Shown: positions 1 through 22,261 of the stretch, one piece after another
Layout: each line of letters begins with the position of its first letter
Position numbering within the stretch: the stretch's first letter is position 1
Virus record (IMG/VR): IMGVR_UViG_3300029623_000016
Location: 1-43,426 of that record
Source of the DNA: a virus
Length of the DNA: 43,426 nucleotides
Direction: 5' to 3' (one strand)
Translations under genes and position numbers: made by a program
The notes under the pieces: generated by a model
Databases searched by the model: none
What the model was told of the DNA's origin: nothing
Seen by the model: the letters and a program-made list of their open reading frames with translations, nothing else

Positions 1-87
1 TGCGTGTACATTCTTTAAGACTGCGGTTCCTCCTTAACGTCGGAGGGCGGCTCGTTCTCCACTTCAATGTCTGCGGGAATCAAGAGC
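1..87. repeat. Terminal overlap: nt 1-87 are identical to nt 43340-43426, giving circular or circularly permuted genome closure (unit length about 43,339 bp)
   Basis: Exact identity seen directly. ORF 15..284 (-) stops at 15-17 and ORF 42913..43350 (-) starts at 43350 (equivalent to nt 11), so coding is continuous across the junction. This argues for an assembly overlap or permutation rather than a non-coding DTR. Confidence 0.85.
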
Positions 88-284
88 GCCGCAACTTGCG
101 AGACTATCGCGTCCGGAAGCTGGTTAACGTAGCTTTCACCGTAAACATACGGCTTTGACAGTCCGTCGCTCCATTCCTCCCCACTCGGGAATTTTGTTAT
201 CGCCTCTCCTTTGAGAGTGATTTCTTTCAGCGCGAAGTATATTTCCACGCCTTCCTTACTTTTGATTAGAATTTTCTTAGCCAT
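15..284 (-). CDS. Hypothetical protein (89 aa). Late-arm gene whose 3' end lies in the terminal overlap
   Basis: ORF on the late strand, tightly packed: 3 nt separate the start of the upstream 145-aa gene from this gene's stop in the circular map. Confidence 0.5.
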   Translation of the reverse strand: MAKKILIKSKEGVEIYFALKEITLKGEAITKFPSGEEWSDGLSKPYVYGESYVNQLPDAIVSQVAALLIPADIEVENEPPSDVKEEPQS

Positions 285-1506
285 TTGCTTGATTTATTTG
301 AGTTTTGATTTCGTCCACGAAAGCTTTTACTGATTGGTCGTTGTCGCCAACAACACTCCCTGTGACTGTTGCGTCGTAAGAATGACCCGAAGCGTCCTTT
401 ACAAGTTTAGTAGTTGAATTGCGCTCGATTACGTAGTTGTCTAGCGCGAGCGAAACTTGCGAAGGCTTTAACGTAGGCGGAATAAGTTTTCCAACCGCAT
501 AATCGGCTGTGGTGTACGGCGCGCCTTCTGCCGTCATGTCGAAATTGAATACCGAGATTCGCGAAAGTGCGATTTCAAATTCGTTGAATGTTGAACCTCC
601 CGCGTACACTCCGCGCTCGTTTATCACAAGCGGCTTTTGGAATGAAACCGACGCGTTGTGCCTGCCGACCGACGCGACGAGGCTGCCTGCGTTTTCGCCG
701 TCTATGTATACAGGTATAGACGCGGGGCTGTTGCCGCTTGCGTCGGGCGCGGGAATTGCAATCGCGACGGTATGTCTGCCGGTCGGCAGCGGGATATTTC
801 CTCCCCACCCCCTCGACACTCCCATTCCCTCGCCGCCGCATCCGCCGAGCGTGAAGCCCAACTGCGACTCCCCGCTCTTGGTGAGCCTGAATCCGTATAT
901 CGGATAACCCGAGACGTTCCAGTCGGCGTTCGTGCAGTTGAAGAAAGAAAATTCGTTGTTGTATTCGTAGCTTATCCCCTCCCAGCTTTCGACTTCGTAT
1001 TCGATTGCGAGCGAAAACGGCAGCGGAATGACGACCGACGTCCAGCTCGCCACGCTCAGCTTGCCTTGATTGAAGTGCAGCGTGCCATACGGAAGTTTTG
1101 ATAAAGCTAGCGTAGATAGGTCGTAAGACACTTCATCAATCGTATCCGATAGACTAGTTACTTCCTGCTGCAAGATGGTTACATCGTCCTTTGAGGCGGT
1201 TCCTGAAAGGTATCCTTTTTCATCAACGCCATCAACAGTTGAGTCCTCCTGTATTTTGGACACAACCATATAGGTTTGACCACTTTCTGTAGAAAACGTA
1301 AGCCTACCTCCAGTAGGATTACCAGCGTTAGATGATATAGTATAACGTCCTGCGGGCGGTACTACGGTAGTTTTATTCTCTCCGGCGGGGTCTACAAAGT
1401 CGACAAGAAAAGGAATGTTACCTACATTAGTGTAGATAAGTTTAACATCTTTTACCATGTCTGCAAAGTTAACTTGTAGACCGCCAGTATTTACTGCAAT
1501 TTTCAT
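277..1506 (-). CDS. Putative virion surface or host-recognition protein (409 aa) with a GC-rich mosaic central segment
   Basis: Long late-strand ORF. Gly/Ser/Thr-rich, beta-rich-looking sequence. Coordinates ~500-1100 are markedly GC-rich, producing spurious ORFs on both strands. No catalytic motif recognised. Confidence 0.45.
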   Translation of the reverse strand: MKIAVNTGGLQVNFADMVKDVKLIYTNVGNIPFLVDFVDPAGENKTTVVPPAGRYTISSNAGNPTGGRLTFSTESGQTYMVVSKIQEDSTVDGVDEKGYLSGTASKDDVTILQQEVTSLSDTIDEVSYDLSTLALSKLPYGTLHFNQGKLSVASWTSVVIPLPFSLAIEYEVESWEGISYEYNNEFSFFNCTNADWNVSGYPIYGFRLTKSGESQLGFTLGGCGGEGMGVSRGWGGNIPLPTGRHTVAIAIPAPDASGNSPASIPVYIDGENAGSLVASVGRHNASVSFQKPLVINERGVYAGGSTFNEFEIALSRISVFNFDMTAEGAPYTTADYAVGKLIPPTLKPSQVSLALDNYVIERNSTTKLVKDASGHSYDATVTGSVVGDNDQSVKAFVDEIKTQINQANG

Positions 1507-1778
1507 TTTAGATTGCCTTTCAATATAATCTCATTTAAAGTTAGTCGTAAATCACTTATTATCGCGTCTTTCTCCTGTATTACTCTTTCCGATGCTAGTG
1601 TTATCGACCGTCCCGTTTTGTTCGTAAAGCTCTGACCATTTTCCAGATACAGGTAATCCGGCAAGGACGTGACTTCGTAAAGACGCGAGTCTACTACGGT
1701 CGCGTTGCAACCTGTCAACCAAAGTATGTTGACCATCAGCGCGTAACGTAGTAATCTTTTCTTGAAATTCTTGCTCAT
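1503..1778 (-). CDS. Lipoprotein, o-spanin candidate (91 aa)
   Basis: N-terminus MSKNFKKRLLRYALMVNILWLTGC has a basic n-region, hydrophobic core and L-T-G-C lipobox. Overlaps the 108-aa ORF in another frame, an embedded or overlapped spanin-like architecture. Confidence 0.45.
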   Translation of the reverse strand: MSKNFKKRLLRYALMVNILWLTGCNATVVDSRLYEVTSLPDYLYLENGQSFTNKTGRSITLASERVIQEKDAIISDLRLTLNEIILKGNLK

Positions 1779-1878
1779 TCTCGTATTCCTCGTTCAGAAC
1801 GTCCAACACTAGTTTAGACTTTCTTATCTCTAAGTATATTCTTATACACTCTATAAGAGATGCCAAAGTTTTCAACAT
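1552..1878 (-). CDS. Possible coiled-coil partner ORF (108 aa) overlapping the lipoprotein gene. i-spanin-like by position only
   Basis: Fills the 134-nt gap in a tightly packed operon. Charged and helical-looking. No convincing N-terminal TM, so it may be spurious. Confidence 0.25.
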   Translation of the reverse strand: MLKTLASLIECIRIYLEIRKSKLVLDVLNEEYENEQEFQEKITTLRADGQHTLVDRLQRDRSRLASLRSHVLAGLPVSGKWSELYEQNGTVDNTSIGKSNTGERRDNK

Positions 1879-1912
1879 AGTGTTGGACGCCAGAACATGA
1901 GGTTAAGTATGG

Positions 1913-2134
1913 CTACTTATTAGTGGTCTGAACAGTAGAAGGAGTTTCTACCGAATTGTCAATAGTTTGAGTTTTAGCGTCTTTTATATAACCACCTATA
2001 TCTGCGGCGGTATCTTCAAAAGATACTTCTCTTCCAAGCAGGAATGAAGCTATCACAGTCAATATAACTGCAACTATACCGATTCCTGCGCCTATTTTCT
2101 TTTTACTTGATTCTTCCATATTTAAGTCTCCCAA
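1913..2134 (-). CDS. Small membrane protein (73 aa), holin- or i-spanin-like
   Basis: KKK followed by a single hydrophobic helix IGAGIGIVAVILTVIASFLL, then a polar C-terminal tail. Immediately downstream of TerL and overlapping it by 13 nt. Confidence 0.45.
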   Translation of the reverse strand: MGDLNMEESSKKKIGAGIGIVAVILTVIASFLLGREVSFEDTAADIGGYIKDAKTQTIDNSVETPSTVQTTNK

Positions 2135-3645
2135 TTTAAACCATCGAAATTAGAAGTTTTAAAAAATTCACTATCAGTTGATTTAAAAGTATTTGTAAAA
2201 GTAGAATGTTTAGGAATATTCTGTTTAGCAAGTACAGGCGGGGGATAATAGTCTAAACCATCATGAAGAATAATTCTTCCAAGATTTTCCATCATATGGT
2301 CATCTTTATCTTTCGGTTTATTATCTCTATCAAAATACCATGAAGCAAGTTCCTTACGAGTTTCTGTACAACGTTCATGAACCCAAAGATGAGGTTTATT
2401 GTTATAGAAGTGTTCGTTAGTAGATTTTATCGCTTCTGTACGTGCTTTACTTCCCTTAGTAAGTTCTATTCCATACTTTTCAAAATCATCTGCGAAAGAA
2501 CGTTTAGTAGTTTGGTCTACTATAAAAGCCGCAGGTTCTATAAGTATATATCCTATCTGGTCGTACCAAGATTTACCTTTTAACCAATTAGCAATTTCTT
2601 CAATAGAGCCTTTCGCAAACCTTTCATCGAATATGATGGCGTCGGTGGGCGTAATCGCGACCGCAAGGGTCGCGTGCGGTGTTTGCGGGTGGGTGTCGAT
2701 TGCCACGGCAATGAGGGCGTCTTCGGGCGGTTCGTCGATTGATTTCCAACCCGCGGGTGTTCCTCGGCTGAGATGCTTGCTTTCGGAGTACCCGTGTATG
2801 ACGAGCCTCCCCGCGGCCATCGGGCGACCGTCGCGTCTGCATGCTAGCTCTTCCTCACTTAGAGTCTCATAGAAAGCGTCCATTCCTTTTATGTGGGCGT
2901 TCTCTCCCGCCTTACCAGTGTAAATCCAGTAATAGTCTGGGTGGGCGGTGCTCTGCATTACTGCCTCGTCCCACATCCACATCTCCTCTATTGGAGTTAA
3001 TAGACGCCACATAGAGCCATCGCGGTCAATAAGTCCACGAGCAACTGCCACCTGCATATCGCGGGGAAGCGGTTCATCTACATGAATGAAATCCCAATCA
3101 GATGATTCAAGACCCATCTCATTTCGCAAGAACGATTGGACAGTAGCGAAATAAAGAAGACTATCCCGCTGAACACCATCTATAACACTACGGAAAGCCA
3201 TTCGGGTTGTTCTACCCTGATTGTCTCTCCAAGTATTAGTTATATAGCGGGCGGGGCAATATTCCCTAATTTTCCCCTTTGGTGATGAACCAAAACCCTC
3301 ACCTGTAAATAGTTCGTCTACCTTATCCCATGTTTGAGCTATCACAAGTCCCTTAACGCCCCGCCTTGGTATCCCAAGACGCCTCAACGGATTGTCGGCG
3401 GGGTAAAATCTACGCTCTCCAAGAACCCAACTAATATCCTCTATAACGCCACACGTAGACTTTCCCCACCTATTTCCGCCGAATATATCTCGCCTTTTCT
3501 TGTCCGCATTTTCAAAGAACGCTTTTTGCCCGCCGTTATTCGGTACAAAAAAATCTATTTTAAATTCAGTGCGGAGTTCATTTCGTCTCTTATATAACTT
3601 TCTTAGCCGAACTAACTCCTCTTCTGATATGTTAAGCTTAGACAT
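2122..3645 (-). CDS. terL: Terminase large subunit (507 aa)
   Basis: Walker A GGNRWGKST near the N-terminus, Walker B-like FIHVDE, and C-terminal RNaseH-like nuclease region (AIDTHP...D). Size is typical. Confidence 0.85.
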   Translation of the reverse strand: MSKLNISEEELVRLRKLYKRRNELRTEFKIDFFVPNNGGQKAFFENADKKRRDIFGGNRWGKSTCGVIEDISWVLGERRFYPADNPLRRLGIPRRGVKGLVIAQTWDKVDELFTGEGFGSSPKGKIREYCPARYITNTWRDNQGRTTRMAFRSVIDGVQRDSLLYFATVQSFLRNEMGLESSDWDFIHVDEPLPRDMQVAVARGLIDRDGSMWRLLTPIEEMWMWDEAVMQSTAHPDYYWIYTGKAGENAHIKGMDAFYETLSEEELACRRDGRPMAAGRLVIHGYSESKHLSRGTPAGWKSIDEPPEDALIAVAIDTHPQTPHATLAVAITPTDAIIFDERFAKGSIEEIANWLKGKSWYDQIGYILIEPAAFIVDQTTKRSFADDFEKYGIELTKGSKARTEAIKSTNEHFYNNKPHLWVHERCTETRKELASWYFDRDNKPKDKDDHMMENLGRIILHDGLDYYPPPVLAKQNIPKHSTFTNTFKSTDSEFFKTSNFDGLNWET

Positions 3646-4141
3646 TTATGATGTCCTCTTCAAGAAGCCGTTGTGCATCAGAATCCGACAACCCTATACC
3701 GCGGAGAGTATCAAGTATAGCTTTCTCAATCTTCTTAGACTCAGCTTCCGCATTAACATTATAATTGACCTGCTCAATAGTCTGCCTAGCCTTACCCATT
3801 ACTCTATCTAGTATCTCGGTGGCAACATCATTCCTTAGCTTAGCAGGTTGGGTTTCATCATGAAGTAGTCTATATTTAAGCCGCAGGCTGGCAGTCGCCA
3901 TCTTCTCGATAGTCTCTTTTTCATCATCGAAAGTATCAACCTCAAATCTATGATAGAGGTCTTTATGATACTTCGTTATTAAAAGGTTTTGCGCCTCAGG
4001 AATAATACCAAATTCCGACTGAATATCTGAGGCGGGGAGTCCCAGAGCACGAAGCATAGTTATGGCGCGGGAGAGCGGATATTGTGCTAAGTCCTGAACT
4101 TCCGTATCTAATAGTAAATCTGCTTCTATTTGTTCACTCAT
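3638..4141 (-). CDS. Putative terminase small subunit (167 aa)
   Basis: Immediately upstream of TerL and overlapping it by 8 nt. Small helical protein. First gene of the late arm after the AT-rich region. The call is positional only. Confidence 0.4.
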   Translation of the reverse strand: MSEQIEADLLLDTEVQDLAQYPLSRAITMLRALGLPASDIQSEFGIIPEAQNLLITKYHKDLYHRFEVDTFDDEKETIEKMATASLRLKYRLLHDETQPAKLRNDVATEILDRVMGKARQTIEQVNYNVNAEAESKKIEKAILDTLRGIGLSDSDAQRLLEEDIINV

Positions 4142-4155
4142 TTCCTTTGGAAATG

Positions 4156-4178
4156 ACGTTATAAATGATTTATAATGT
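4156..4178. promoter_or_regulatory. Copy 1 of the 23-bp perfect AT palindrome ACATTATAAAT(C/G)ATTTATAATGT, 14 nt upstream of the TerS-like start
   Basis: Read directly. Palindromic with 11-bp arms. Contains TATAAT/TATAAA on both strands. Confidence 0.6.
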
Positions 4179-4904
4179 CTTTGTCTTACGACAATAAAAA
4201 AGTTTTTTAAAAAGCTATTGCCGAGGGCGGCAGCCCTTCTTTTTACGTCCTGTATAATAATATAGGGCGTAGCCTTATGTCAAGTAATATTATTCTTGCT
4301 TAATAATAATACTTAATTTTAGTGGTAGGTCGAGAGAGGATATTCTATATAGAGACCCCCTCCCCCTCTGGATAGAGTACTTATAACAGCTTCGCCGTCT
4401 CTAAATTTATTTTTTATTATTTTTAGACTTTTTATCTCTATAAAATAATACACTTATCTGTCAAATACACTTATGCGTCAATAATATATATGGTGGCGGA
4501 TTAAATACACTTGCAACGGCGGGAAAGGCTAACGCCTTATTATCAATAATATATAAATAATACTTTAAAATATTATTTTAACTTATAAATAATACTGATA
4601 TCATAATATTTATGAACATAAGTAATAATCCCATTTATACACAATTTATATCATTTTTTATATTTATCTTGTCAATTTATAATATCATTATTATTTATGA
4701 GACAAAATAATATTCTAAATTACAAAATAATATTGATAATAATATATATCAGATAATCTCAAATTCTATTATTTTTATTAGCTTTCTCTCTATTTATAAT
4801 AATATTATTATTTTAATATCATAATATGATTATACGAATGTTTCAATATTATTTTATATTTTTTGCTTGACAAGGCGGGAAAAATCTATCTAAAAACGCT
4901 ATGA

Positions 4905-4972
4905 TAAATTATATCATTATTTATCATTATTTATTATTATTTATTATATTATATCATTATTTATATCATTTT
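4905..4972. repeat. Tandem AT-rich repeat array (units approximately ATCATTATTTAT)
   Basis: Seen directly: atcattatttatcattatttattattatttattatattatatcattatttatatcatt. Confidence 0.6.
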
Positions 4973-5425
4973 AATATAAAATATCCATCTTTTTGATGAT
5001 TTTGATGTTTTGCGGGTTTCATTTTCCGGTTTGCATATCCCTCTTGTTAAGTGCTTAAAATCCCAAATTTTTAAAAAAAATAATAAATAAAATATATTGG
5101 ATTTATTTGGATTTATATTGATTTCCAAAAAATCAAGCAAAAAATCGCGCTAAAACGGCAAAAAGCGACAAAAATCCTTCCAAGCCATCAAAATTTTGTA
5201 TTTTCCTAAAAAGCTCAATATCAGTTGCTTGCGCAATCAAAACATTCAAAGTTTCAATCCGCTTTCTTTTGAAGCTTTTGATTGCTCCGCAATTTGATAA
5301 ATATTATCCGATTATAATCCCCGCCCTCATCTCTTATCATCTCCTATCATAAGGGTTTTTTATCCCCTTAATAATCATCTACTTAAAAAAGTAAAAATTT
5401 TTTTTGAAAAATTGAAAAAAGGGGC

Positions 5426-5454
5426 TTGACAGCTCCGCCGATTTCATTCAATAT
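5426..5454 (+). promoter_or_regulatory. Sigma70-like early promoter: TTGACA-N17-CAATAT
   Basis: Exact -35 hexamer, 17-nt spacer and a 4/6 match to the -10 box, ~70 nt upstream of the first plus-strand gene (5529). Confidence 0.45.
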
Positions 5455-5528
5455 AGGCGCATAAAAATTTGAGGGCTTTCCGCCCCGAAGGTTCTTTGAA
5501 ATAAACCCTAAAAAAGAAAGGCAATAAA

Positions 5529-5921
5529 ATGAAAAGTAAAGTTGTAAACACAAACGCGAAAATCGCCGACGGCTCAACCGTTGCGATAAATTCAAACGTG
5601 CAAGTACCGGAAACGCTCGACGAATTGAAAGCACTTGCCGCCGACGCGCTTGGTACAAATGACTCCGCCGCGATTGAAAGCCACTTGGTAGATTTATTTG
5701 TAGCTTGGAACGTGGCACACACTTATCAGTCGCAAGTAAGGTCAAAGTTAAAAACGGCAAGCTCATCTTTAACATATGACCAGCTTTCCGACCTTGTAAG
5801 CGATATTCCGTTCAGGATTCCAAGACCGGCAAGCGCACCCCGCGGTGACAAGGTTGTACTGAAAAAATCGCAACTTACACCGCAACAAATAGAAAAGCTC
5901 AGAGAGCTTGGAATACTCTAA
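5529..5921 (+). CDS. Early hypothetical protein (130 aa) with a C-terminal ...QIEKLRELGIL module
   Basis: First ORF after the promoter. Its C-terminal ~20 aa are shared with the 6327..6788 product. Confidence 0.6.
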   Translation: MKSKVVNTNAKIADGSTVAINSNVQVPETLDELKALAADALGTNDSAAIESHLVDLFVAWNVAHTYQSQVRSKLKTASSSLTYDQLSDLVSDIPFRIPRPASAPRGDKVVLKKSQLTPQQIEKLRELGIL

Positions 5922-6017
5922 AATAATAGTGGTGAGTACTTAATAGGTACTCACCACTTTTTGTTCTCTTATGGTATAAAAATATCATTTTATTAACATT
6001 AAATATTATAATATATT

Positions 6018-6305
6018 ATGAACTATAAAAAACAATTATTTTTCAACTATCGTAAACAATGTAAGTTGGCATATGAAGCGAACTTACCAGCTGAACCGCT
6101 CCAACTTGGCGGGCAAGTCACAATAAGTTTTGTCTGGACGGAAAGTTCACAAACGAAAGAAACCTTTGAATGTATGGTAATAGTATACCATCATAAGCCA
6201 ATGGTACAACGCATAAGTAACAGTGACGTCTTCCCCACCGACGCACTTTACCGCCTTGCTTGTGAGGCGGAAAAATATATTCACTTCGTGGGGACTAACG
6301 TCTAA
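6018..6305 (+). CDS. Hypothetical protein (95 aa)
   Basis: ORF on the early arm. Confidence 0.45.
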   Translation: MNYKKQLFFNYRKQCKLAYEANLPAEPLQLGGQVTISFVWTESSQTKETFECMVIVYHHKPMVQRISNSDVFPTDALYRLACEAEKYIHFVGTNV

Positions 6306-6326
6306 TAGTAGATAGGATAAGTATTT

Positions 6327-6788
6327 GTGTTAGATTATAATATTATCGAAACAGGTCAAACTTTACAGATAGACGATACTATTAGGAAACTTCTATACAT
6401 AAAATATGGTGTATGGTGTGGAACTATGGTAGTTTTCGACAAGGGGACAATAGTCCCCTTAATAAAAGAAACTACAAGGATAGTTCAGTACTTCACGGAG
6501 GACAAAGTACTTAAAAATGAAAAGGTTGAAACTTATCGGGAGACTATCCCACCCAAACCACTGCTTTTAAGAGGGGAGTCATCAAGATTACCCCGCGCCA
6601 CTTTAACGTGGGAAGAAATAAGACTTGCATATACAAGTCAAAGTTCTAACGAAACATACAAAGTACAAAAAGCGAAAGTTCCTAAACCTTTCGGAAAGCC
6701 GAAAGGTGAAGTAGATAAAATAGAACTTAAAGTGACTACACTAAGTGATAAACAAATAGCAACTCTGAAAGAGTTGGGAATACTATAA
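6327..6788 (+). CDS. Early hypothetical protein (153 aa, GTG start) with a C-terminal ...QIATLKELGIL module
   Basis: ORF. C-terminal motif shared with the 5529..5921 product at protein and DNA level. Confidence 0.55.
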   Translation: MLDYNIIETGQTLQIDDTIRKLLYIKYGVWCGTMVVFDKGTIVPLIKETTRIVQYFTEDKVLKNEKVETYRETIPPKPLLLRGESSRLPRATLTWEEIRLAYTSQSSNETYKVQKAKVPKPFGKPKGEVDKIELKVTTLSDKQIATLKELGIL

Positions 6789-6821
6789 CTCGAAGATTTG
6801 TAAACATTCCAAAAGAATGAG

Positions 6822-6844
6822 ACATTATAAATCATTTATAATGT
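6822..6844. promoter_or_regulatory. Copy 2 of the 23-bp AT palindrome (intergenic, after the 6788 stop)
   Basis: acattataaatcatttataatgt read directly. Confidence 0.6.
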
Positions 6845-6971
6845 ATAACTATGGATAAATAAACGTCTAAAAAGAAGAGTAAGAAAGGATATAATATGAC
6901 TCTAATTGATTTGGTAGACAGATTCTTTGAATCTAAACCGACGACTATGTCGTCTCACGTAGTTATTAAAG

Positions 6972-7340
6972 TTGATAATAAAATACTATATCAACTTTAT
7001 AGAAGTACTCTTGTGGTATGGTATCGTGATAAGAACATTTTTGGAAGTTAGACCTCATACTAACTATTATGAGTTCAGTCCTACTACTCAAAGAGCGTTT
7101 CGTAGGTTTGGAATAGTATTTTCTAACTGTAAAGGTAAATTAACGCTTGAACAAATTAACTACAAGGGTGGGCGTTTTAGACAATTCGACATTCCTGTTG
7201 AACAAGGGTATGTAATACTTATAAAATATTATACTCACGATATAGCTGTATGGGTTGCACCTGAAAGGAGTGTTGACTCGTTTATCCGAGAGTTTCGCGC
7301 GGAAGAAATGAGTAACTTGCTGAGAAGTGACAGTGTATAA
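6972..7340 (+). CDS. Hypothetical protein (122 aa; TTG start uncertain)
   Basis: ORF. A 51-codon ORF at 6896-7051 precedes it. Start codon not resolved. Confidence 0.35.
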   Translation: MIIKYYINFIEVLLWYGIVIRTFLEVRPHTNYYEFSPTTQRAFRRFGIVFSNCKGKLTLEQINYKGGRFRQFDIPVEQGYVILIKYYTHDIAVWVAPERSVDSFIREFRAEEMSNLLRSDSV

Positions 7341-7350
7341 GGATAGAGAT

Positions 7351-7405
7351 TGCCCCGCCTTGCGGCGGCTGGAAGTCGGCGGGGTGAAGCTGAGTGAATT
7401 TTTAA
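7351..7405 (+). terminator. GC hairpin (CCCCGCC...GGCGGGG) followed by a T-run: rho-independent terminator candidate
   Basis: Inverted repeat 7353-7359 / 7378-7384, then aattttt. Confidence 0.45.
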
Positions 7406-7423
7406 CTACAAGGAAAGGTAAGT

Positions 7424-7903
7424 ATGAAAGAATTGAAACTAAAAATAGAAAAGTTCAATAAGGCGATAGCCTTTCAGACACTTAAAGTCACGGATTGTGT
7501 AGATTCGGAACACGTAAAGTTCTCCGCCAGTCCTATCATATTGGAAGATAAGATTGTGCTCAATAAGTACAAAGACAACTCCACCTTGGGAAGAGCCTAC
7601 TTTAACTCCAACGAACAAAGGGACTTTGTCTTTGACAAGCTTATCAAATGGGTGACGGACGAGCAGTTTTCCCGCCCTCCAACTAAGTTGGAGATAGGTG
7701 AGGAAGCATTGTTTAGCGATACGATTGGGGAAGGCGGTGTTAGGGGAACACTTGTATACATACTACCAGAAGAATTTGAAAGTAGGTATCTATCTGCTTC
7801 CGACTCCTATCCGTATTGGTGCTATTGGAAGTACGCTCGCCCCGCCAACAATACCCTAAAAGTAAATGGTAATATCTACCATTGGAGGGGTGACAATGAA
7901 TAA
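7424..7903 (+). CDS. Hypothetical protein (159 aa)
   Basis: ORF with a purine-rich RBS (aaggaaagg) upstream. Confidence 0.55.
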   Translation: MKELKLKIEKFNKAIAFQTLKVTDCVDSEHVKFSASPIILEDKIVLNKYKDNSTLGRAYFNSNEQRDFVFDKLIKWVTDEQFSRPPTKLEIGEEALFSDTIGEGGVRGTLVYILPEEFESRYLSASDSYPYWCYWKYARPANNTLKVNGNIYHWRGDNE

Positions 7904-8321
7904 CGCGGTTCATTACCTCTTAACAAATAAAGACTATCGATTCGGTAAACATAAAGTGGAGGCGGGAGAGTATCGTTCAACCTACACTTACGATGGTTTT
8001 GTAATGATAGAATTCTATCATACATTAAAAATACTAGTATTTCATAAACCTATAATCAAGAAAGAAGTCATAACTATTTTTGAGAAATGTGGACTTAAAA
8101 TAAAGTATGATAAGAACCACAAAGTATATGAGATACGTACAGTATTTGGATACGTCTTAGGCGGGAGTCATATTAAATATACTATGAGTGATTGGAGTAT
8201 CGACTTTGTTGCTGTTAAGATCCTGCTTACTAATACACTGTTCTTTCGAGGAAAAGATTTAGTTTATACTTTACTAAATGATAAACTCGGGACTGAAACA
8301 GACCGACAGCCCCGCCCGTAA
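7896..8321 (+). CDS. Hypothetical protein (start taken at MNNAVHYLL; ATGA overlap with the upstream stop)
   Basis: ORF. The terminator hairpin overlaps its last codons. Confidence 0.5.
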   Translation: MNNAVHYLLTNKDYRFGKHKVEAGEYRSTYTYDGFVMIEFYHTLKILVFHKPIIKKEVITIFEKCGLKIKYDKNHKVYEIRTVFGYVLGGSHIKYTMSDWSIDFVAVKILLTNTLFFRGKDLVYTLLNDKLGTETDRQPRP

Positions 8322-8431
8322 TCAGAGGCGGGACAGTCAGCTTCATAGCCACAACCACGCGGCTTCAAGCCGCAACCACTGTCGCCCGTCAGGGCGGGTC
8401 AAGCTTCGCTTTAATCAACTATATATTCGAT
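8310..8431 (+). repeat. Structured intergenic cassette A (~110 bp): CCCGCC/GGCGGG hairpin, GCGGC/GCCGC hairpin, CGCCC/GGGCG hairpin, then CTTTAATCAA followed by a start codon
   Basis: Aligns with cassette B at 10350-10519 (shared aatcag.gggcggg...agctt..tcatagccac...cgcccg.ca.gggcggg...ctttaatcaa). Confidence 0.55.
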
Positions 8432-9073
8432 ATGAATAACCATATAATTACAAGAGATAAACTAATAGACATTATTAAAAAGTGTGACTTATCTAAATAT
8501 GACTTAGAAAAGACTATGTCTGGTGTTTATACGAAAGATTATGAACATCGGATATTTGAAATTCATAATGGAATATATGTATTTAATCCCGACAAAGATG
8601 CTTATAATATTCCACTAGCCAAGGATATGTTTACATATCTAACTAAACGGAGACCTATTATTATAGATACTAATAAGCAAGTTTATATAGGTGAACCTAT
8701 AACCTTTGCTCTTAATGACGACTACGTCGCTAATAAACTAACCTTTCTAAGAGTATATAAATATCTTAATGGAGCTGACTATAATGATAGTGGTATTACA
8801 GTAGAGGGAAGGTCAGTTTTTGATAGGAGAAGTAATAATAGCGTGGAGAAATCAACACTTCTGGTTAGAAGAATGAGCTTGCCGCTTCATAAGATTTATT
8901 GCCCCACCTCACGGGCGGGGTTATCTTTCATTAGACTTCTAACGGGAAGAGAGTTCTCTTGTAAGTTAGGCGTTTGGCACATCGGAAACATCGCAGTTAA
9001 ATTCCCGCTCTATTATCACGCTAACATGGAAATGATATTTACGCAATTCAAAGACAATATAAATGATTTATAA
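8432..9073 (+). CDS. Hypothetical protein (213 aa)
   Basis: ORF. Confidence 0.55.
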   Translation: MNNHIITRDKLIDIIKKCDLSKYDLEKTMSGVYTKDYEHRIFEIHNGIYVFNPDKDAYNIPLAKDMFTYLTKRRPIIIDTNKQVYIGEPITFALNDDYVANKLTFLRVYKYLNGADYNDSGITVEGRSVFDRRSNNSVEKSTLLVRRMSLPLHKIYCPTSRAGLSFIRLLTGREFSCKLGVWHIGNIAVKFPLYYHANMEMIFTQFKDNINDL

Positions 9074-9076
9074 GGT

Positions 9077-9541
9077 ATGAATAAGATAATAACAAAGCAT
9101 CTATTATTTAATTATGGTAACTATCAATATCAACAATGGATTCAACACGTCGGGATTTCATCTGCATATACACTTGCAAAGCAGATAAATAGGAACGTTA
9201 GATTTCCCGTCCCCGTCCTCGCGGGACATATAAACTATAAAGCAGCACCTATATTTATGCATATGTTGGAGAATTTTAAATGCTACCATAAGTGGCTTGG
9301 AACTGTTGTTAAGATAAGCTTTATGCTTGACTCTTGTTATATGTATATAAAGTGGAGAGGGGTTCCCCCGCCCAACTTAGATGAGATTAGAATGAGTCCA
9401 TCATTTTATGAAGAATGTTTACGTGGTGTATTGTACACCCCAACCGTATTACTTCACGTAGCAATAACTGAAAAACCTAACATACCAAACTGTGGAAAGT
9501 TGGATTATGAATATTTTAAATCTAATAACTTCGGATACTAA
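9077..9541 (+). CDS. Hypothetical protein (154 aa)
   Basis: ORF. Confidence 0.5.
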   Translation: MNKIITKHLLFNYGNYQYQQWIQHVGISSAYTLAKQINRNVRFPVPVLAGHINYKAAPIFMHMLENFKCYHKWLGTVVKISFMLDSCYMYIKWRGVPPPNLDEIRMSPSFYEECLRGVLYTPTVLLHVAITEKPNIPNCGKLDYEYFKSNNFGY

Positions 9542-9830
9542 TAGGAAAGCTCGTAAGCTTTTAGGACACCCATTAACCAAGCGTGAGATATATCTATTCA
9601 TATACTTAGATGCTTGTCTTAAAGACCATATAGAATACTCTGAAAAGTTTATGACTTCATACGATAAAGACATAATTCTTTCACTTAACTATATGGGGTT
9701 ACTTCGAGCGATTGAAACCCCGCAGGGTGTTAGCCTTGCTGTTAAGCGAAGCTTGTATAATCTTATACAAGATGCAATCTTTGATTGTTTTATTAGTGAA
9801 ATAGAGGAGAGATACGATGAATCCAGATGA
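9492..9830 (+). CDS. Hypothetical protein (112 aa; start uncertain, overlaps the upstream gene)
   Basis: ORF. Confidence 0.35.
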   Translation: MESWIMNILNLITSDTNRKARKLLGHPLTKREIYLFIYLDACLKDHIEYSEKFMTSYDKDIILSLNYMGLLRAIETPQGVSLAVKRSLYNLIQDAIFDCFISEIEERYDESR

Positions 9831-10095
9831 TATACAATTCTTTGATGTAGGAAAACCAGTCGTTGTAAAGATAGGAGAAACAGAGGGCGGGGAAGTCCGC
9901 TTTTGCATAGCAAAAGTAGTAGATATTATATTTATTACTGACGACGACACTATTAAAGTACAACAGTACTCAGTAAAGTTTACTAACGAGTATGATAATG
10001 ATACTTGTTGGTATGACGCTTGTGACGTATTTAAAAATATAGATTCTTTAATGGAGTCTATTAAACAAAAGAAAAATAAAACGAAAGGAAAATAA
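9817..10095 (+). CDS. Hypothetical protein (92 aa)
   Basis: ORF. Confidence 0.45.
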   Translation: MNPDDIQFFDVGKPVVVKIGETEGGEVRFCIAKVVDIIFITDDDTIKVQQYSVKFTNEYDNDTCWYDACDVFKNIDSLMESIKQKKNKTKGK

Positions 10096-10097
10096 AC

Positions 10098-10349
10098 ATG
10101 AAAGAAAAAGATATAAGGTTTAACATAGGCGATATAGTATATGCTGTTAAGGGTGTGAATAGACACACCAATGACTATGCTATCCTTAAACAGAAAGTCG
10201 AGGCGGTAATGGTCGAAGTTAATAGCGATGGGTGGATAAATGAAGTATCTTACGTTCTAACAGATGACCTCGGACATCATAGGTCTACTAAGGTGAGCGG
10301 GGTATTCGCTACATTTGAAGAAGCTCTCGAATATGCTAAGAACGACTAA
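10098..10349 (+). CDS. Hypothetical protein (83 aa)
   Basis: ORF with RBS aaaggaaaa. Confidence 0.5.
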   Translation: MKEKDIRFNIGDIVYAVKGVNRHTNDYAILKQKVEAVMVEVNSDGWINEVSYVLTDDLGHHRSTKVSGVFATFEEALEYAKND

Positions 10350-10519
10350 GATTTAGTTCCCCCGCGCTCGGAATAGACTCGGGATTCGGCAACAATCAGT
10401 GGGCGGGGCAAGCTTTGATTCATAGCCACCCCGCCCGCTTTCACCAACCGACTCTAATCCGCCCGCAAGGGCGGGGAGTCTACCCTAACTTTAATCAATC
10501 AACCTCAATACGAAGTAAT
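10350..10519 (+). repeat. Structured intergenic cassette B: perfect 8-bp GGGCGGGG/CCCCGCCC hairpin, CCGCCC-GCAA-GGGCGG tetraloop hairpin, then CTAACTTTAATCAATCAA followed by a start codon
   Basis: Related to cassette A (8310-8431). Read directly. Confidence 0.55.
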
Positions 10520-10783
10520 ATGAATGAAGAAGAAAAGTTTGAAGCAAGAATGATAGACCTTGCAGAGTCGGGTGATAACCCCGAAACAGTTATATTCGGT
10601 ATGCTTAACGCAATACGAATGTATTTCGAGTCTACTGACATGGACGATATATATGAAATAATGTTGGATTATATTCGTGATTGGGCAGACCGAGACGGGT
10701 ATAATAAAACTACTATTAACGTAGGTAAGTTTGTAAAGAAAATAGACAGTGGAGAAGAGTTCGAGTATGAAGAGATTGATTAA
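10520..10783 (+). CDS. Hypothetical acidic protein (87 aa; start moved to MNEEEK after cassette B)
   Basis: The ORF track start lies inside the structured repeat. The ATG at 10520 follows the conserved CTTTAATCAA box. Confidence 0.45.
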   Translation: MNEEEKFEARMIDLAESGDNPETVIFGMLNAIRMYFESTDMDDIYEIMLDYIRDWADRDGYNKTTINVGKFVKKIDSGEEFEYEEID

Positions 10784-11459
10784 ACGAACCTATCGGTTTA
10801 ATCCAAATAGTAAAAAGATTACTCTTATGCGAGCACTTGCTTCGCTGTCCAGCCACGACTTTATTGAAGTAGCAGGAGATAGTAATCTTCGTTACCTAAG
10901 AAACATCGCGTCAAGATATAAGATTTATCTCACGGTAACTAATATTGGTTTTGAGTCTTACAGAGTCTCTCTTAAAACGGATAAGGCTCTTGACTTTGTG
11001 TCCATTGCAGGTAATAAAGTCAAGAGTGATTATTCAACTGTAAATAATAAGGGTCTATATAATTTAAAACAAGACCTCATTCAACTTGGCGAGGAAGAAT
11101 TAAGGGGTAGTATAGATTTGATAGGAACTCGTATATCAGATGAAGAGACTGAAAGTTATTCTACTCTCGAACGAAAGTGGGAAACTAAGACACCAACGTA
11201 TGGTAAGTCTGGATATATGATAGACGGTTATTCTTACTATGTAGGTCATAAAGATATTCCAAGCGACTGGGTTGTGTATCATAGTGAATTTAATTGTCTC
11301 TTTAAACCTAAGCATGTAAAGAATCCTGTATTGTTGTCTAATAAAACACCACGAAGTATAGGTGTACCCGATACAGTTAAATTCGTTGGTCATGTTCCAC
11401 ATGAAGAAGCAGAAAGAAGATTTCAATTTTTAAGTACTTATGGACAAGAGAAAAAATAG
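10767..11459 (+). CDS. Hypothetical protein (~231 aa)
   Basis: ORF. No confident motif (HNH and GIY-YIG considered and not supported). Confidence 0.5.
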   Translation: MKRLIKRTYRFNPNSKKITLMRALASLSSHDFIEVAGDSNLRYLRNIASRYKIYLTVTNIGFESYRVSLKTDKALDFVSIAGNKVKSDYSTVNNKGLYNLKQDLIQLGEEELRGSIDLIGTRISDEETESYSTLERKWETKTPTYGKSGYMIDGYSYYVGHKDIPSDWVVYHSEFNCLFKPKHVKNPVLLSNKTPRSIGVPDTVKFVGHVPHEEAERRFQFLSTYGQEKK

Positions 11460-11778
11460 AATTAAAGATAGTCAGCAAACTGAGTTTGATTTCTCGACAT
11501 TTTGTCAACCTGATTGTATAGAATTAAAAAATAAACACTGGGGATTTAAAAAAGATTTCTTTGAACGTCTTGTTTATTCCCTTGAAAAACTTGCAGTTCC
11601 TATTACATACATAGATGTTAATAACTGTATAGTTAGAGCACGAATAGATGTCGCAGACATCGAACCTCTTATTAGAACGTCACAAGAGCTATTTAAAATT
11701 ACATTAGTAAAGTCTTGTGATGGACTTGTATTGGAGGGCGGGGCAAGAGTTAATGAACCTATAATTATCACTTGGTGA
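11440..11778 (+). CDS. Hypothetical protein (112 aa)
   Basis: ORF. Confidence 0.45.
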   Translation: MDKRKNRIKDSQQTEFDFSTFCQPDCIELKNKHWGFKKDFFERLVYSLEKLAVPITYIDVNNCIVRARIDVADIEPLIRTSQELFKITLVKSCDGLVLEGGARVNEPIIITW

Positions 11779-11885
11779 TATGAAAAACTGTTTGTCGGAT
11801 ATTAACTTATTGTCTTTTATAGATATATCTTCTGTAAGAGAGGAACAATTATTTCACAACTTAGCGAAGCTAGCGAAGAAAATAT

Positions 11886-12344
11886 ATGTGGAGAACGATA
11901 GTATTTATATTAGTGTTGTTAATAATTTCAACAATCGTTTTGACGACAAGAGTTACGTTGCCCCGCCATGTAGATATAGAGCGAGTTGCATGGACTATAT
12001 ATCTCGAAGCGCGGGGAGAACCTCCTGCCAGTATGATGGCTGTGGCTTCCGTGATATATAATCGAGCAGAAGGTAATATTTGTAGATTTAATTACGTGGT
12101 GACTCAACCTTACCAGTTCGCGGGGTGGGACAAGAACTTTAACTTTGCTGTACCAGAAGATGCTGATGCATTTAGTCAAGCGTTCTCAATATCATACTTG
12201 ATGCATCACGGTGAATTTACTCCTACTGGAACTTGGAATCACTTTTTTAACTATAAAATTAGTCCGTGGTGGGCTAATGGTTATAAGAAAACACGTATTG
12301 GAAATCATGTGTTTATAACAATAGATAAGAAAGATAAGAGATGA
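11886..12344 (+). CDS. SleB-like cell-wall hydrolase (Hydrolase_2 family) with an N-terminal membrane anchor. Endolysin candidate, possibly signal-anchor-release type
   Basis: N-terminal hydrophobic stretch IVFILVLLIISTIVL, then RVAWTIYLEARGEP...AVASVIYNRAE, typical of the SleB/cell-wall-hydrolase family. Confidence 0.6.
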   Translation: MWRTIVFILVLLIISTIVLTTRVTLPRHVDIERVAWTIYLEARGEPPASMMAVASVIYNRAEGNICRFNYVVTQPYQFAGWDKNFNFAVPEDADAFSQAFSISYLMHHGEFTPTGTWNHFFNYKISPWWANGYKKTRIGNHVFITIDKKDKR

Positions 12345-12664
12345 GCAATGAGCAAGAGTTAAAAGACGTTCTGTTGGAAGTAAATAACTCTATTAAAGGT
12401 GATTTACCTAATTATATACATGAGTTATTGTTAAAAGAAAGTGGAAAAAGTTGGAGATTTAGAGTCTATAAACAAGCAGGTAGGCTTATAGTAGTAGGAA
12501 CTATACCTCTATGTGTTTTGAAAAAGCTTATTGCTAATCCAGCGTTTTCTTTTTTAAAAGACATTTACTTCAAAGCTCCACTTTATGTAAAAGGCAAGGT
12601 CTTGTCAGACCTTACGATAGAAGAATTAGAAGCGCAGCTTCAAAGTGCAAATATAAATTATTGA
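12341..12664 (+). CDS. Hypothetical protein (107 aa)
   Basis: ORF. Confidence 0.45.
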   Translation: MSNEQELKDVLLEVNNSIKGDLPNYIHELLLKESGKSWRFRVYKQAGRLIVVGTIPLCVLKKLIANPAFSFLKDIYFKAPLYVKGKVLSDLTIEELEAQLQSANINY

Positions 12665-12666
12665 TA

Positions 12667-13554
12667 ATGTCCATTATGAAAATATATGATACCATTAAAC
12701 GTCCTATGAAAGGATATAATTGCATAGGACAACTTAACAATGTCAGATTTCCAAAAGTAGCACAACCTAAGTACGATGGAATAAGAGTGTTGTTTATTAA
12801 CGGAGTTGCTTTAAGTGCAAGTCTTAAACCTGTTCGTAATAAGAATATACAACGGATAGCGGCTTCACATGACTATGATGGATATGATACTGAATATGTC
12901 GTACCTAATAGTCCGATAGGATTAAGAGCGTGCTCTCATGAAGTGAACTCTTTTGACGTTTCTCTTTCTGGTATCTTTCATATATTTGATATAATTGGAG
13001 GCGGGGATTACGCTAATAGATTTCTTAATGCACGTATTGAAGCTAATGGATTGTTTGATGTAGCTCCAAGTACTATTGTACAGAACGTGGAGGAGATTGA
13101 ACAATACTTGTCTGAACAATTAAAGGCTGGTTATGAAGGGGCTATGCTTAAAGACATGTTTAGTCTATATAAACAAGGACGTAGCTCTATAAAGTCACAA
13201 GAATGTTTGAAGCTTAAACCTTTTGTAGACGATGACGCTGTCGTAGTAGGATACGAAGTAGAGCAAGAGAATCAGAATGAGCCAACTATAAATGAGCTTG
13301 GACTCACTAAGCGAAGCTCTGCGAAGGCAGGGAAGGTCGATAAACCTCTTATAGGTACATTGATATGTAAGTCGAACTTGTTTCCGTCACCGTTTGGTGT
13401 ATCAGGTTTTACTATGGAACTTAAAGAACGTATGTTCCACGAACGTAATAAGCTTATGGGTAAAACTATTACATATAAACATCAACGATGCGAAGCATAT
13501 GAGAATGCCCCGCGTCACCCCGTGTTTGTACGTTTTATAGACCCGATTGTATGA
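12667..13554 (+). CDS. lig: ATP-dependent DNA ligase (~296 aa)
   Basis: Motif I KYDGIR (KxDGxR), motif IV YEGAMLK (EGxxxK), downstream LKLK. Small phage-type ligase. ATG at 12667 follows the upstream stop. Confidence 0.8.
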   Translation: MSIMKIYDTIKRPMKGYNCIGQLNNVRFPKVAQPKYDGIRVLFINGVALSASLKPVRNKNIQRIAASHDYDGYDTEYVVPNSPIGLRACSHEVNSFDVSLSGIFHIFDIIGGGDYANRFLNARIEANGLFDVAPSTIVQNVEEIEQYLSEQLKAGYEGAMLKDMFSLYKQGRSSIKSQECLKLKPFVDDDAVVVGYEVEQENQNEPTINELGLTKRSSAKAGKVDKPLIGTLICKSNLFPSPFGVSGFTMELKERMFHERNKLMGKTITYKHQRCEAYENAPRHPVFVRFIDPIV

Positions 13555-13656
13555 TGGAACTTATATCTGAACTAATATCAAAACTCTATGTTATAGGTTT
13601 CTTTACGTTGTGTTTTACTGGACTTATAATAACAATAGTGGAGATAATAACTGACA

Positions 13657-13854
13657 ATGGGACGAGAAAATCACGAGACAAGAGCAAGGATTACAACAGA
13701 TAATCCTAATGTAAACTTTAATCTTAAAAAACTTAATCAAACTGGAAGATGTTATTCTTGTGGTGCAAAATTAATGCAGGCTAATCATGTACTTATATGT
13801 CCGCAATGTGGACGTGAGTGGCCTCTTAACAGTGTTAAAAGAAAAGAACAATAA
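13657..13854 (+). CDS. Small zinc-ribbon protein (65 aa)
   Basis: CYSC...CPQC pair of CxxC motifs. Confidence 0.4.
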   Translation: MGRENHETRARITTDNPNVNFNLKKLNQTGRCYSCGAKLMQANHVLICPQCGREWPLNSVKRKEQ

Positions 13855-13856
13855 TT

Positions 13857-14066
13857 ATGGATAATATTTATGGAGAGGATATAAAGAAAAAACTAGATAA
13901 AACAATAATGCTTTTGGAAAGGGTGGCTAACGCCCTTGAAAATAGCAATAAGGGCAAGGCGGGAATTGCCTCGCAATCGATTGAGATTGCCTCACAAATT
14001 GAAGGAAAGCCAAGCATATATAAACGCCCCGCCTTCATAGGAAAAGGCAAGGAAAAGGAAAAATAA
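13857..14066 (+). CDS. Hypothetical protein (69 aa)
   Basis: ORF. Confidence 0.35.
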   Translation: MDNIYGEDIKKKLDKTIMLLERVANALENSNKGKAGIASQSIEIASQIEGKPSIYKRPAFIGKGKEKEK

Positions 14067-14083
14067 AATTTTTAAAAATAAGC

Positions 14084-14112
14084 TTGACATTTTGCGCAGG
14101 AATATGAATAAT
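14084..14112 (+). promoter_or_regulatory. Sigma70-like promoter TTGACA-N17-AATAAT for the GC-rich moron gene
   Basis: Exact -35, 17-nt spacer, 5/6 match to -10, AT-rich UP-like tract upstream. Confidence 0.45.
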
Positions 14113-14177
14113 GGCCTCATTCTTTTTTGGAGACTCTTTGTTTCCAAAACTCAACAAAACAAAAAAGGAAAAATACA

Positions 14178-14735: not shown

Positions 14736-14789
14736 CCTCAACGCGGTAAGCTTGGTGGGTTCTATTCCTGCCAAGCCCCGCCCTTAACT

Positions 14790-16220: not shown

Positions 16221-16221
16221 T

Positions 16222-16867: not shown

Positions 16868-16869
16868 CT

Positions 16870-17592: not shown

Positions 17593-17595
17593 CTG

Positions 17596-22260: not shown

Positions 22261-22261
22261 T

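Follow-up and report, generated by a model that had tools for sequence, protein, structure and literature searches.

In phage lambda the origin of replication combines iterons with an AT-rich region and is activated by nearby transcription, the primary origin of T7 consists of tandem promoters followed by an AT-rich stretch, and phi29 has closely spaced divergent early and late promoters together with architectural protein binding. Here we describe a 1387-nt non-coding gap at positions 4142-5528 of a viral genome from the IMG/VR database (record IMGVR_UViG_3300029623_000016, positions 1 to 43,426; "the window" below means this whole stretch of 43,426 nt). The gap, which we refer to as the hub, runs from the start of a putative small-terminase gene (terS, start at 4141 on the - strand) to the start of the first early gene (5529 on the + strand), and is the point from which a - strand late/packaging arm and a + strand early/replication arm diverge. 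Two described phage systems resemble it in layout. The experimentally mapped origin of c2-type lactococcal phages lies in non-coding DNA that separates the divergent early and late gene blocks; the first two early promoters flank it, it is hypervariable between ori types, and it depends on the non-coding PE1 transcript (PMC7150918). The origins of SPP1 are composed of direct repeats together with an AT-rich unwinding element, A+T-rich islands mark its regulatory regions and origins, and its pac site overlaps the late promoters PL1/PL2, the ribosome-binding site (RBS) and the 5' end of gene 1, which encodes the small terminase (PMC6316719).

Like the region in c2-type phages (Ceduovirus), the hub is free of open reading frames (ORFs), lacks an RBS and lies between divergent early and late blocks. 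It too varies more than any other part of genomes that are otherwise similar, and it falls into distinct types that cannot be aligned. Where c2-type phages carry tandem early promoters (PE1 and PE2) on the early side, the hub has a well-supported early promoter, P_E, and an upstream promoter-like unit with a TTGACA box at 4867 and no canonical -10 element. Unlike the c2-type region, the hub is about twice as long and has no sequence similarity to the c2, bIL67 or 923 origins, and this phage encodes PolA, primase/helicase, ligase and recombination genes of its own, whereas c2 origins replicate plasmids without phage proteins. We take the match to be one of architecture, not homology. With SPP1 the hub shares a promoter, a palindrome and an invariant block just upstream of the putative terS, with repeats and AT-rich DNA adjoining; in SPP1, however, pac and the origins are separate loci, with oriL inside the initiator gene, whereas the hub is a single gap and terS is assigned by position only. 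As in lambda, T7 and phi29, promoter-like units, AT-rich DNA, short repeats and predicted curved DNA come together in the hub, but it does not have four or more copies of 18-19-bp iterons, and no phage RNA polymerase was found. To our knowledge, neither the size of the hub nor its double insulation by opposite-strand terminators is a feature of those three phages. The hub is a sequence-unrelated example of a familiar phage control/origin region, such regions being well known as a class, and its most distinctive properties are the double terminator insulation, the invariant block and a modular, strain-variable AT core.

We propose that 4142-5528 is a central, transcriptionally insulated control hub, the interior of which most likely contains the replication origin, a proposal that we hold with about even confidence. 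Two promoters of host type (sigma70-like) at its edges point outward, P_L into the putative terS, the large-terminase gene and the rest of the late arm and P_E into the first early gene. In the proposed mechanism, read-through from either arm would be stopped before it reached the interior of about 1.1 kb, which would act as a cis-acting DNA module. Within this module, the unwinding element would be the AT-rich core, located between divergent promoter-like sites (4675 on the - strand, 4867 on the + strand). The right half, which is conserved and has 9- and 10-bp repeats, the A/T tract and the phased A-tracts, would be the part to which initiator or architectural proteins bind, and + strand transcription from the 4867 unit through non-coding DNA toward P_E could activate or prime replication, as is reported for the PE1 transcript of c2-type phages. 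The features on which this proposal draws are collected in Table 1.

Table 1. Positions of the sequence features of the hub in the window. The strand is left empty where none is assigned.
Feature	Position	Strand	Description
23-bp palindrome ACG-TTATAAATGATTTATAA-TGT	4156-4178		Core 4159-4175; ends 17 nt before the putative terS ATG
Hairpin and T-run	4218-4245	+	GC stem, reads as an intrinsic terminator; just outside P_L
P_L	4283-4254	-	TTGACA 4283-4278, N18, TATTAT 4259-4254; sigma70-type, 11/12 consensus
GC-rich inverted repeat	4262-4276		Inside the P_L spacer; arms covary
Near-invariant 80-bp block	4305-4384		96% mean column identity versus 50-85% around it
Short covarying hairpin	4386-4425	+	T-rich run 8-12 nt later; terminator polarity uncertain
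17-bp tandem repeat AATACACTTAT(C/G)(T/C)GTCA, two copies	4447-4480	+	TTGACA/TTGACG on the - strand
GGCGGGAAA motif and hairpin AAGGC-TAAC-GCCTT	4518-4538		Stem conserved, loop variable
AT-rich core 1	4545-4866		87% A+T; hypervariable in length and sequence; candidate unwinding element
Promoter-like site	TTGACA 4675-4670	-	With TGaTATAAA, extended -10-like; in AT-rich core 1
Promoter-like unit	4860-4893	+	T-run, GC, TTGACA (4867), N12, TCTATCT (4891)
AT-rich array 2	4895-4985		10-bp tandem repeat TATCATTATT, 5.3 copies at 4912-4964
9-bp direct repeats nnTTTGA(T/A/C)G	4991-5017	+	2-3 copies here, 3-5 in relatives
Conserved segment GGTTTCATTTTCCGG...TAAGTGCTTAAAATCCCA	5018-5064		From comparison of relatives
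Pure A/T run, 34 bp	5065-5098		Longest in the genome; conserved in relatives
10-bp direct repeats TTGGATTTAT	5097-5126	+	Two exact copies, one degenerate
Five phased A-tracts	5127-5174		10.5-11 bp phasing, 0/1000 shuffles; more tracts in relatives
Strongly conserved non-coding 68-bp segment (CCGTCAAAATTTTGTATTTTCATAAAAAGCTTAAAATCAGTTGCTTACGCAATCAAAACATTCAAA)	5183-5250		From comparison of relatives
Covarying hairpin	5280-5294	+	GATTGC/GCAATT here; AACCGC/GCGGTT, AACGC/GCGTT in relatives
TATCAT, two copies, and covarying hairpin	5335-5370		TATCAT at 5335 and 5345 (10-bp spacing); hairpin 5350-5370, AAGGG/CCCTT versus ATGAG/TTCAT
P_E	5396-5454	+	A/T-rich UP-like stretch, invariant GCTTGACA, TTGACA 5426-5431, N17, CAATAT 5449-5454
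Hairpin	5471-5487	-	In the early 5' leader; reads as a terminator on the - strand; three covarying pair types

A gene-free gap in a new phage lineage

The window holds a complete phage genome of about 43 kb. Its first 87 bases recur exactly at the 3' end (1-87 and 43340-43426), and the assembly is thus circular with a unit genome length of 43,339 bp. The overlap falls within a gene, and the contig of one relative, c094927, overlaps by 119 bp; we take 87 and 119 to be typical assembler k-mer sizes, and a circular assembly is the more likely explanation of both overlaps than a biological terminal repeat. The + strand arm (5529-24065) encodes an ATP-dependent ligase, a PD-(D/E)XK exonuclease, a Sak4-like annealing protein, a ParB-methyltransferase fusion, a family A DNA polymerase (PolA) and a DUF3987 primase/helicase (22710-24065). 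The - strand arm (24062-43350 and 15-4141) carries the major head protein, portal and putative terminase genes.

The proteins next to the hub are hard to place. Only the C-terminal part of the large terminase (TerL, 2122-3645 on the - strand) matches PHROG terminase families, with an E-value of about 1e-4, and no sequence match to TerL was found in Pfam, NCBIfam or PDB. The protein of 167 amino acids (aa) that adjoins the gap (3638-4141 on the - strand) carries its TerS label by position only and gave no informative family or structure match in PHROG, Pfam, NCBIfam or PDB. Searches of PDB, NCBIfam and Pfam with the first early protein (130 aa) were likewise without a match. Single-sequence AlphaFold models of the two proteins had predicted local distance difference test (pLDDT) scores of 49 and 54, respectively, both too poor for a fold search. 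Judged by sequence, the packaging genes of this phage lineage appear to be very divergent.

The best protein identity to isolated phages is about 24% (PolA and TerL), and the DNA polymerase is at most 25% identical to that of any deposited phage. With PolA and TerL at such a distance, no mapped origin is transferable to this genome. No DNA match to 3600-6400 was found by blastn against 50,697 phage records, and relatives of the phage were not found in the bacterial genomes scanned, which gave no host inference. This 43-kb gut-type phage is new and has no cultured or annotated relative.

An earlier note on this DNA, made from the sequence alone, had described 4180-5528 as an AT-rich, non-coding hub without credible ORFs, fitting an origin of replication combined with an early/late switch. 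The large gene-free gap is real, with its true start at 4142 rather than 4180, and it far exceeds the runner-up intergenic gap in the genome, which is only 275 nt. The absence of genes also holds: we examined coding capacity and rejected it, every ORF of at least 20 aa being either AT-driven or disrupted by indels in relatives, including a 1-nt indel in the conserved block.

Protein-anchored scans added nine genomes from the same phage species group, with TerL proteins 98-99% identical. The hub is uninterrupted in two of these relatives (c165299 and L029), could be joined across contig ends in three more and is partial in the others. Nucleotide identity to the window is 93-99% across TerL and the putative terS and falls abruptly at 4142 to 50-85%. 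This lower identity extends from the hub into a mosaic early region with whole-gene replacements, for example at 6241-6329, 6826-7346 and 7428-8321. Within the hub, islands of higher conservation are seen, namely the palindrome, the P_L region, the 80-bp block, the 17-bp tandem repeat, the GGCGGGAAA hairpin and nearly all of 4990-5454; the right half (about 540 bp) is conserved among the relatives. Among distant relatives (TerL 22-36% identical), only L031 has a divergent gap upstream of terS, and this gap is small; a large hub is thus found in this clade alone.

Of ten related assemblies, seven break inside the hub or at its edge, at points scattered over the AT-rich core and the tandem units (c094927, c097375, c087056, c098403, c101516, OMDD01000083 and OBKR01000496). 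We considered whether these contig ends are physical DNA termini and rejected this, as the ends are scattered and the overlaps match the assembler k-mer sizes (87 and 119); low coverage or repeat-induced assembly breaks are the most likely cause. This is a warning that public contigs often lack the hub or join it wrongly.

Outward promoters and predicted terminators of incoming transcription

P_L points toward the putative terS and TerL and is the best consensus match on the late-arm strand. In nine genomes its -35 element is invariant and its -10 element reads TATTAT or TAATAT, and it was flagged independently in L004 and L029. P_E, the TTGACA-N17-CAATAT promoter that the earlier note had placed in front of the early genes, is present (5426/5454) and conserved in relatives: its -10 element reads CAATAT or AATGAT, its spacer has a fixed length and a free sequence, and the A/T stretch upstream of it is conserved. 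Its consensus score is 9-10 of 12, and it was flagged at 10/12 in L004 and L029. In both promoters the hexamers are kept while the spacer sequence varies, and the spacing is within the 16-18 bp of sigma70-type promoters. TTGACA occurs five times in the region against 0.3 expected (0 of 500 composition-keeping shuffles). The early/late switch suggested in the earlier note is supported by these outward promoters, with an invariant -35, a conserved -10 and variable spacers in 7-9 genomes, and the comparison of sequences thus supports reading 4142-5528 as a divergent early/late control region.

A very strong terminator (14-bp stem and T-run) is located at 5928-5958, directly 3' of the first early gene (5529-5921), and P_E may therefore drive a monocistronic immediate-early unit. 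The stretch that follows this terminator, 5964-6063, is the next least stable 100 bp outside the hub.

Further TTGACA boxes lie inside the hub: on the - strand at 4464 and 4481, in the 17-bp repeats, and at 4675, in the AT-rich core, and on the + strand at 4867. The last belongs to the unit at 4860-4893, in which the TTGACA box and the T-run are invariant and keep a fixed spacing, and which is present in one to three tandem copies in relatives, without a canonical -10. Genomes with a short core carry two or three tandem T-run-GC-TTGACA-N12-TCTATCT units; the window has one. In the window the boxes at 4675 (-) and 4867 (+) flank 4727-4826, which among the 100-bp windows of the genome is second in low stability (z = 3.3).

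At each edge of the hub, a GC-rich stem-loop followed by a U-run reads as an intrinsic terminator, on the + strand at 4218-4245 and on the - strand at 5471-5487. The former has a T-rich 3' tail (at least 5 of 10) in six of nine genomes and no - strand U-tail; its stem sequence varies, and it was flagged in L004 in the equivalent orientation. The latter has a - strand U-tail of 6-8 of 10 in all five genomes and was flagged in the window, L004 and L029. In both hairpins, changes on one side of the stem are compensated on the other. The earlier note had seen a hairpin and T-run at about 4207-4245 that could be read on both strands; the hairpin is there, at 4218-4245, but only its + strand reading is conserved. 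Each edge hairpin thus reads as an element that sits in an outgoing leader yet terminates incoming transcription only. Because the edge hairpins are predicted to stop only incoming read-through, on a circular or concatemeric template, we infer that the interior of the hub is deliberately kept free of foreign transcription. Such shielding is what one would expect if the DNA acted in cis, for example as an origin or as a packaging signal.

The promoters and terminators, the best-supported elements of the hub, could also be all that matters in it. The hub would then be purely a transcription control region of promoters, operators and curved upstream DNA that boosts or times P_E and P_L, its repeat arrays would be sites for phage regulators, its AT-rich DNA would be promoter-upstream or spacer DNA, and the origin would be located elsewhere. 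Phased A-tracts and UP-like A/T runs do lie directly upstream of P_E, the palindrome family described below stands at gene starts of both arms and suggests a phage-specific transcription programme, and features specific to an origin, DnaA boxes and an initiator, were not found. We nevertheless consider this explanation unlikely, if a substantial competitor, for the two promoters are 1.1 kb apart, far above the usual regulatory need, the most conserved interior parts are 200-450 bp from P_E, and the stability minimum of the whole genome is inside the hub; shielding from incoming transcription on two sides also fits a cis-acting site better than it fits operators.

An AT-rich core in which composition is kept and sequence replaced

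The hub is as AT-rich as the earlier note had it, with 16.8% GC at 4501-5000, and among the 300-bp windows of the genome 4535-4834 has the lowest stability (z = 3.9). Together with the 34-bp A/T run at 5065-5098, this stability minimum provides the AT-rich DNA expected of an unwinding element. Across genomes, core 1 is 328, 329, 234, 96, 55, 28 and 28 nt long. Array 2 varies from 65 to 137 nt and has different tandem repeats or none: the repeat is a variant in L029, a different one in c165299 and missing in three relatives. The AT-rich segments keep 7-18% GC in every genome though their sequence is replaced. When exact repeats were compared with shuffles that preserve local dinucleotide composition, only the core 4545-4985 had a significant excess (0 of 300 shuffles); the left part was marginal and the right part at chance level.

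The repeats and other elements listed in the earlier note are all present at or within a few bases of where it put them, but its view of them as the iteron families of an iteron-type origin does not survive comparison with relatives. The ACAAAATAATATT pair is present at 4702 and 4722 and the ATCATTATTTAT array has exact copies at 4913, 4923 and 4953; the segments that contain them (28-329 nt and 65-137 nt, respectively) are, however, replaced in near-identical phages, and the 13-mer pair and the 12-mer array are absent or different in close relatives. Because the core varies in length and is replaced in this way, the pair and the array are not iterons and not conserved binding sites. No set of at least three conserved direct repeats of about 17-22 bp, as expected for iterons, was found in the hub, its sole repeat of about 17 bp having two conserved copies. 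This repeat corresponds to AATACACTT, noted three times and found at 4447, 4464 and 4504 (3 of 3 genome-wide); the first two copies form the 17-nt tandem, which is retained in most relatives and has diverged in L029 and L030, but the third, a half-copy at 4504-4512, is not conserved. To the right of the core, TTTTGATG occurs twice near 5000 as noted, at 4991 and 5000, and two of the three reported copies of GGATTTAT are exact (5099 and 5109), but the third is degenerate, reading TGATTTCC at 5119. The most eye-catching AT-rich repeats are thus the least informative. From the sequence comparison, the long AT-rich repeats appear to be slippage-prone, replaceable filler in which composition matters and sequence does not.

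The same variability could mean that this part of the hub, 4545-4985, has no function and results from slippage and illegitimate recombination at the junction of the late region and the mosaic early region. Phages whose TerL proteins are 98-99% identical differ over the whole range of lengths given above, and also in the sequence, which is replaced, and in the microsatellite-like arrays found there; only the core has an excess of exact repeats, seven of the ten related assemblies break here, and the boundary of conservation at 4142 is sharp. Yet an AT-rich segment of 7-18% GC is found at this position in every genome, even where it is only 28 nt long, so that composition seems to be selected, and the window and c165299 share a 320-nt core at 95-98% identity. 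For the core alone, we judge the absence of function a little short of an even call.

The conserved right half

In contrast to the replaced core, the segment from 4990 to 5454 is conserved nearly throughout and contains the short direct repeats, the A/T run and the phased A-tracts listed in Table 1. Additional copies of TTTGA(T/A/C)G are located at 5186 (- strand) and 5267-5285. In the region as a whole, TTTGA[TAC]G occurs four times against 0.76 expected (2 of 500 shuffles), ATACACTT three times against 0.05 and TATCAT 11 times against 3.3 (0 of 500 shuffles for each of the last two). The phased A-tracts at 5127-5174 predict intrinsically curved DNA.

In one relative, c087056 (L005/L017), a segment of about 70 nt, GTTGTGACGATTTCATTTTCCGGG...TAAGTGCTTAAAATCCCA (equivalent to 5010-5064 of the window), is tandemly duplicated, and this genome has four TTTGATG copies. 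The conserved right half can thus expand by duplication of a unit.

Covarying hairpins

Besides the two edge terminators, at least five further hairpins keep their position and covary without a clear terminator polarity: those in the P_L spacer and at 4386-4400, 4525-4538, 5280-5294 and 5350-5370. RNAalifold misaligned the local hairpins of the right part, and stems were therefore read by hand and by folding each sequence separately. The arms in the P_L spacer read AGGGC/GCCTT, ATGGC/GCCAT, AGGGC/GCCCT, TAGGC/GCCTA and AGCC/GGCT in different genomes, and the stem at 4386-4425 reads GGCGTC/GACGCC, GGCGGC/GCTGTC or ACAGC/GCCGT. On the + strand, the hairpin at 5280-5294 looks like a terminator in three relatives, c165299, c098403 and L029. 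These further hairpins could act in RNA or in single-stranded DNA.

If they act in RNA, the hub may, in line with the small RNA that the earlier note had considered, encode one or more non-coding RNAs, either an RNA of about 100-250 nt over the 80-bp block and adjacent hairpins or a + strand transcript of about 400 nt from 4867 to the hairpin at 5280-5294. There are at least seven hairpins that keep their position with compensatory stem changes, G-T pairs in several of them favour the + strand, several TTGACA boxes lie inside the hub, and the longer transcript would end at the hairpin that is terminator-like in three relatives. We regard such RNAs as distinctly unlikely. A search of Rfam 15 gave no match at gathering thresholds (the best relaxed E-values were 0.24-4, far below gathering scores), tRNA and tmRNA searches were without a match, and folding z-scores were modest (-1.6 and -2.3). 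The hairpin within the block lacks covariation, with one inner pair broken in four of nine genomes, and the block has no canonical + strand promoter before it; most of the other hairpins have no clear terminator tail, and no pair of promoter and terminator clearly bounds an RNA. Hairpins in single-stranded DNA at an origin would moreover yield the same covariation.

The invariant block and the palindrome family

The 80-bp block at 4305-4384 contains a 10-bp perfect palindrome, TCTATATAGA, an imperfect hairpin (16-bp / 16-pair) and a C-rich tract. Relatives have 1-nt indels in the C-tract, and the block is therefore non-coding. Its hairpin is kept in all genomes and is 95% paired; RNAalifold and explicit pair counting, applied to the block and to the left part, detected no covariation, as the block hardly varies. 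No second copy was found elsewhere in the genome, exact-pattern scans found the block in five close IMG/VR relatives only among viral contigs and in none of the bacterial genomes, and a covariance model of it detected no diverged copy, either in the rest of the window or in the distant TerL relatives. The conservation of the block tracks that of the terminase genes (93-99%), not that of the rest of the hub. The block is also located a short way upstream of P_L, at 165 bp from the first late gene, and on these sequence grounds it is a candidate for a structured RNA or for a site that the terminase recognises.

The left part of the hub could accordingly be a pac or cos site, with the block, perhaps together with P_L and the palindrome, bound by the neighbouring small terminase; this is compatible with an origin to the right of it. 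The block keeps 96% identity where the terminase genes are 93-99% identical and where divergence has affected the other hub sequence and the early module. It shows internal dyad symmetry, contains a GC-rich tract in AT-rich surroundings and is close to the first late gene, and SPP1 offers a precedent, its pac overlapping with PL1/PL2 and the RBS as well as with the start of gene 1 (PMC6316719). But terS is positional only, without a family or structure match and with a poor AlphaFold model (pLDDT 49), and the contig ends of relatives are scattered in the AT-rich core and do not coincide with the block. From this analysis a packaging site, though to be taken seriously, would seem a rather doubtful assignment.

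The earlier note had also seen a 23-bp palindrome facing terS. This copy is present, with its core at 4159-4175 invariant in all relatives, and belongs to a family of nine genome sites against 0.16 expected. The family, (g)ACA-TTATAAAT-S-ATTTATAA-TGT, is found at 4159, 6825, 9057, 12651, 17599, 19608, 30699 and 40585, with a weaker member at 4540. It precedes genes of both arms, 3 to about 275 nt before the next start codon, and holds a perfect TATAAT in each direction; it resembles the T4 late -10 element, TATAAATA. At 4159, 6825 and 12651 a terminator-like hairpin of the opposite strand is located 10-80 nt away on the upstream side, which suggests that the palindrome fires bidirectionally, with one side capped by a terminator.

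Weighing the origin reading

Several features expected of an origin are combined in the hub, namely the lowest duplex stability of the genome, divergent promoters, conserved arrays of short repeats and phased A-tracts. Cumulative GC skew has a broad, flat minimum at 5400-6300 and purine skew a minimum at 5384, and both skews turn again at about 24 kb. We rejected GC skew as decisive evidence for an origin because it mirrors gene orientation and turns with the switch of gene strand.

This rejection is one of a number of points that weigh against an origin in the interior of the hub. The GC-skew minimum is not at the AT core. No cluster of DnaA boxes (TTATCCACA) was found: the hub has one site with a single mismatch, and the genome as a whole has 14 against 11.6 expected. 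No initiator or origin-binding protein is recognisable, the early proteins that flank the hub being without a match in Pfam, PHROG or NCBIfam, and the primase/helicase gene is 17 kb away. The upstream + strand unit is a -35/UP-like module without a canonical -10, which leaves a c2-like non-coding transcript hypothetical. The conserved repeats are short (9-10 bp in 2-5 copies) and occur at chance frequency within this sequence, the sequence of the AT core is dispensable, down to 28 nt in two relatives, and the phage has its own PolA and primase, whereas the c2 origin relies on host functions only.

With these points taken into account, the origin interpretation is in our analysis reasonable and unproven, at or slightly under an even chance. 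A more specific version, in which the interior is a transcription-primed origin of c2 type that works with the phage's own PolA/primase replisome, is protected by terminators on both sides and is joined by a new, lineage-specific 80-nt RNA or terminase-recognition element, we consider improbable.

Over-represented GGCGGG

The hexamer GGCGGG, mostly as GGCGGG(G/A), is the most over-represented in the genome, with 92 copies against 4.9 expected from base composition, a 19-fold excess. Its copies are equally common on both strands and in the two arms, and they fall in every reading frame, in sense as well as antisense orientation; this independence of strand, arm and frame points to a signal at the level of DNA. 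An 8-23-fold excess is present in every close relative and in none of the distant TerL relatives, and copies in the hub, such as those at 4518, 4874 and 5320, are at conserved positions. The hexamer may act as a Chi-like site of the host, as a target for the ParB-methyltransferase or in priming. A 7-kb stretch with head genes at 33302-40257 (GC about 30-36%) has no GGCGGG, compared with a median spacing of 293 bp elsewhere, and may be a module of different origin.

Implications

For a lineage without a cultured or annotated relative, the hub is the only place whose sequence can be read for regulation, the start of replication and the packaging signal. The comparative map pinpoints P_L, P_E, the two insulating terminators, the block at 4305-4384 and the conserved module at 4990-5300. 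If the interior of the hub is indeed the origin, the c2-type layout would extend beyond lactococcal phages.

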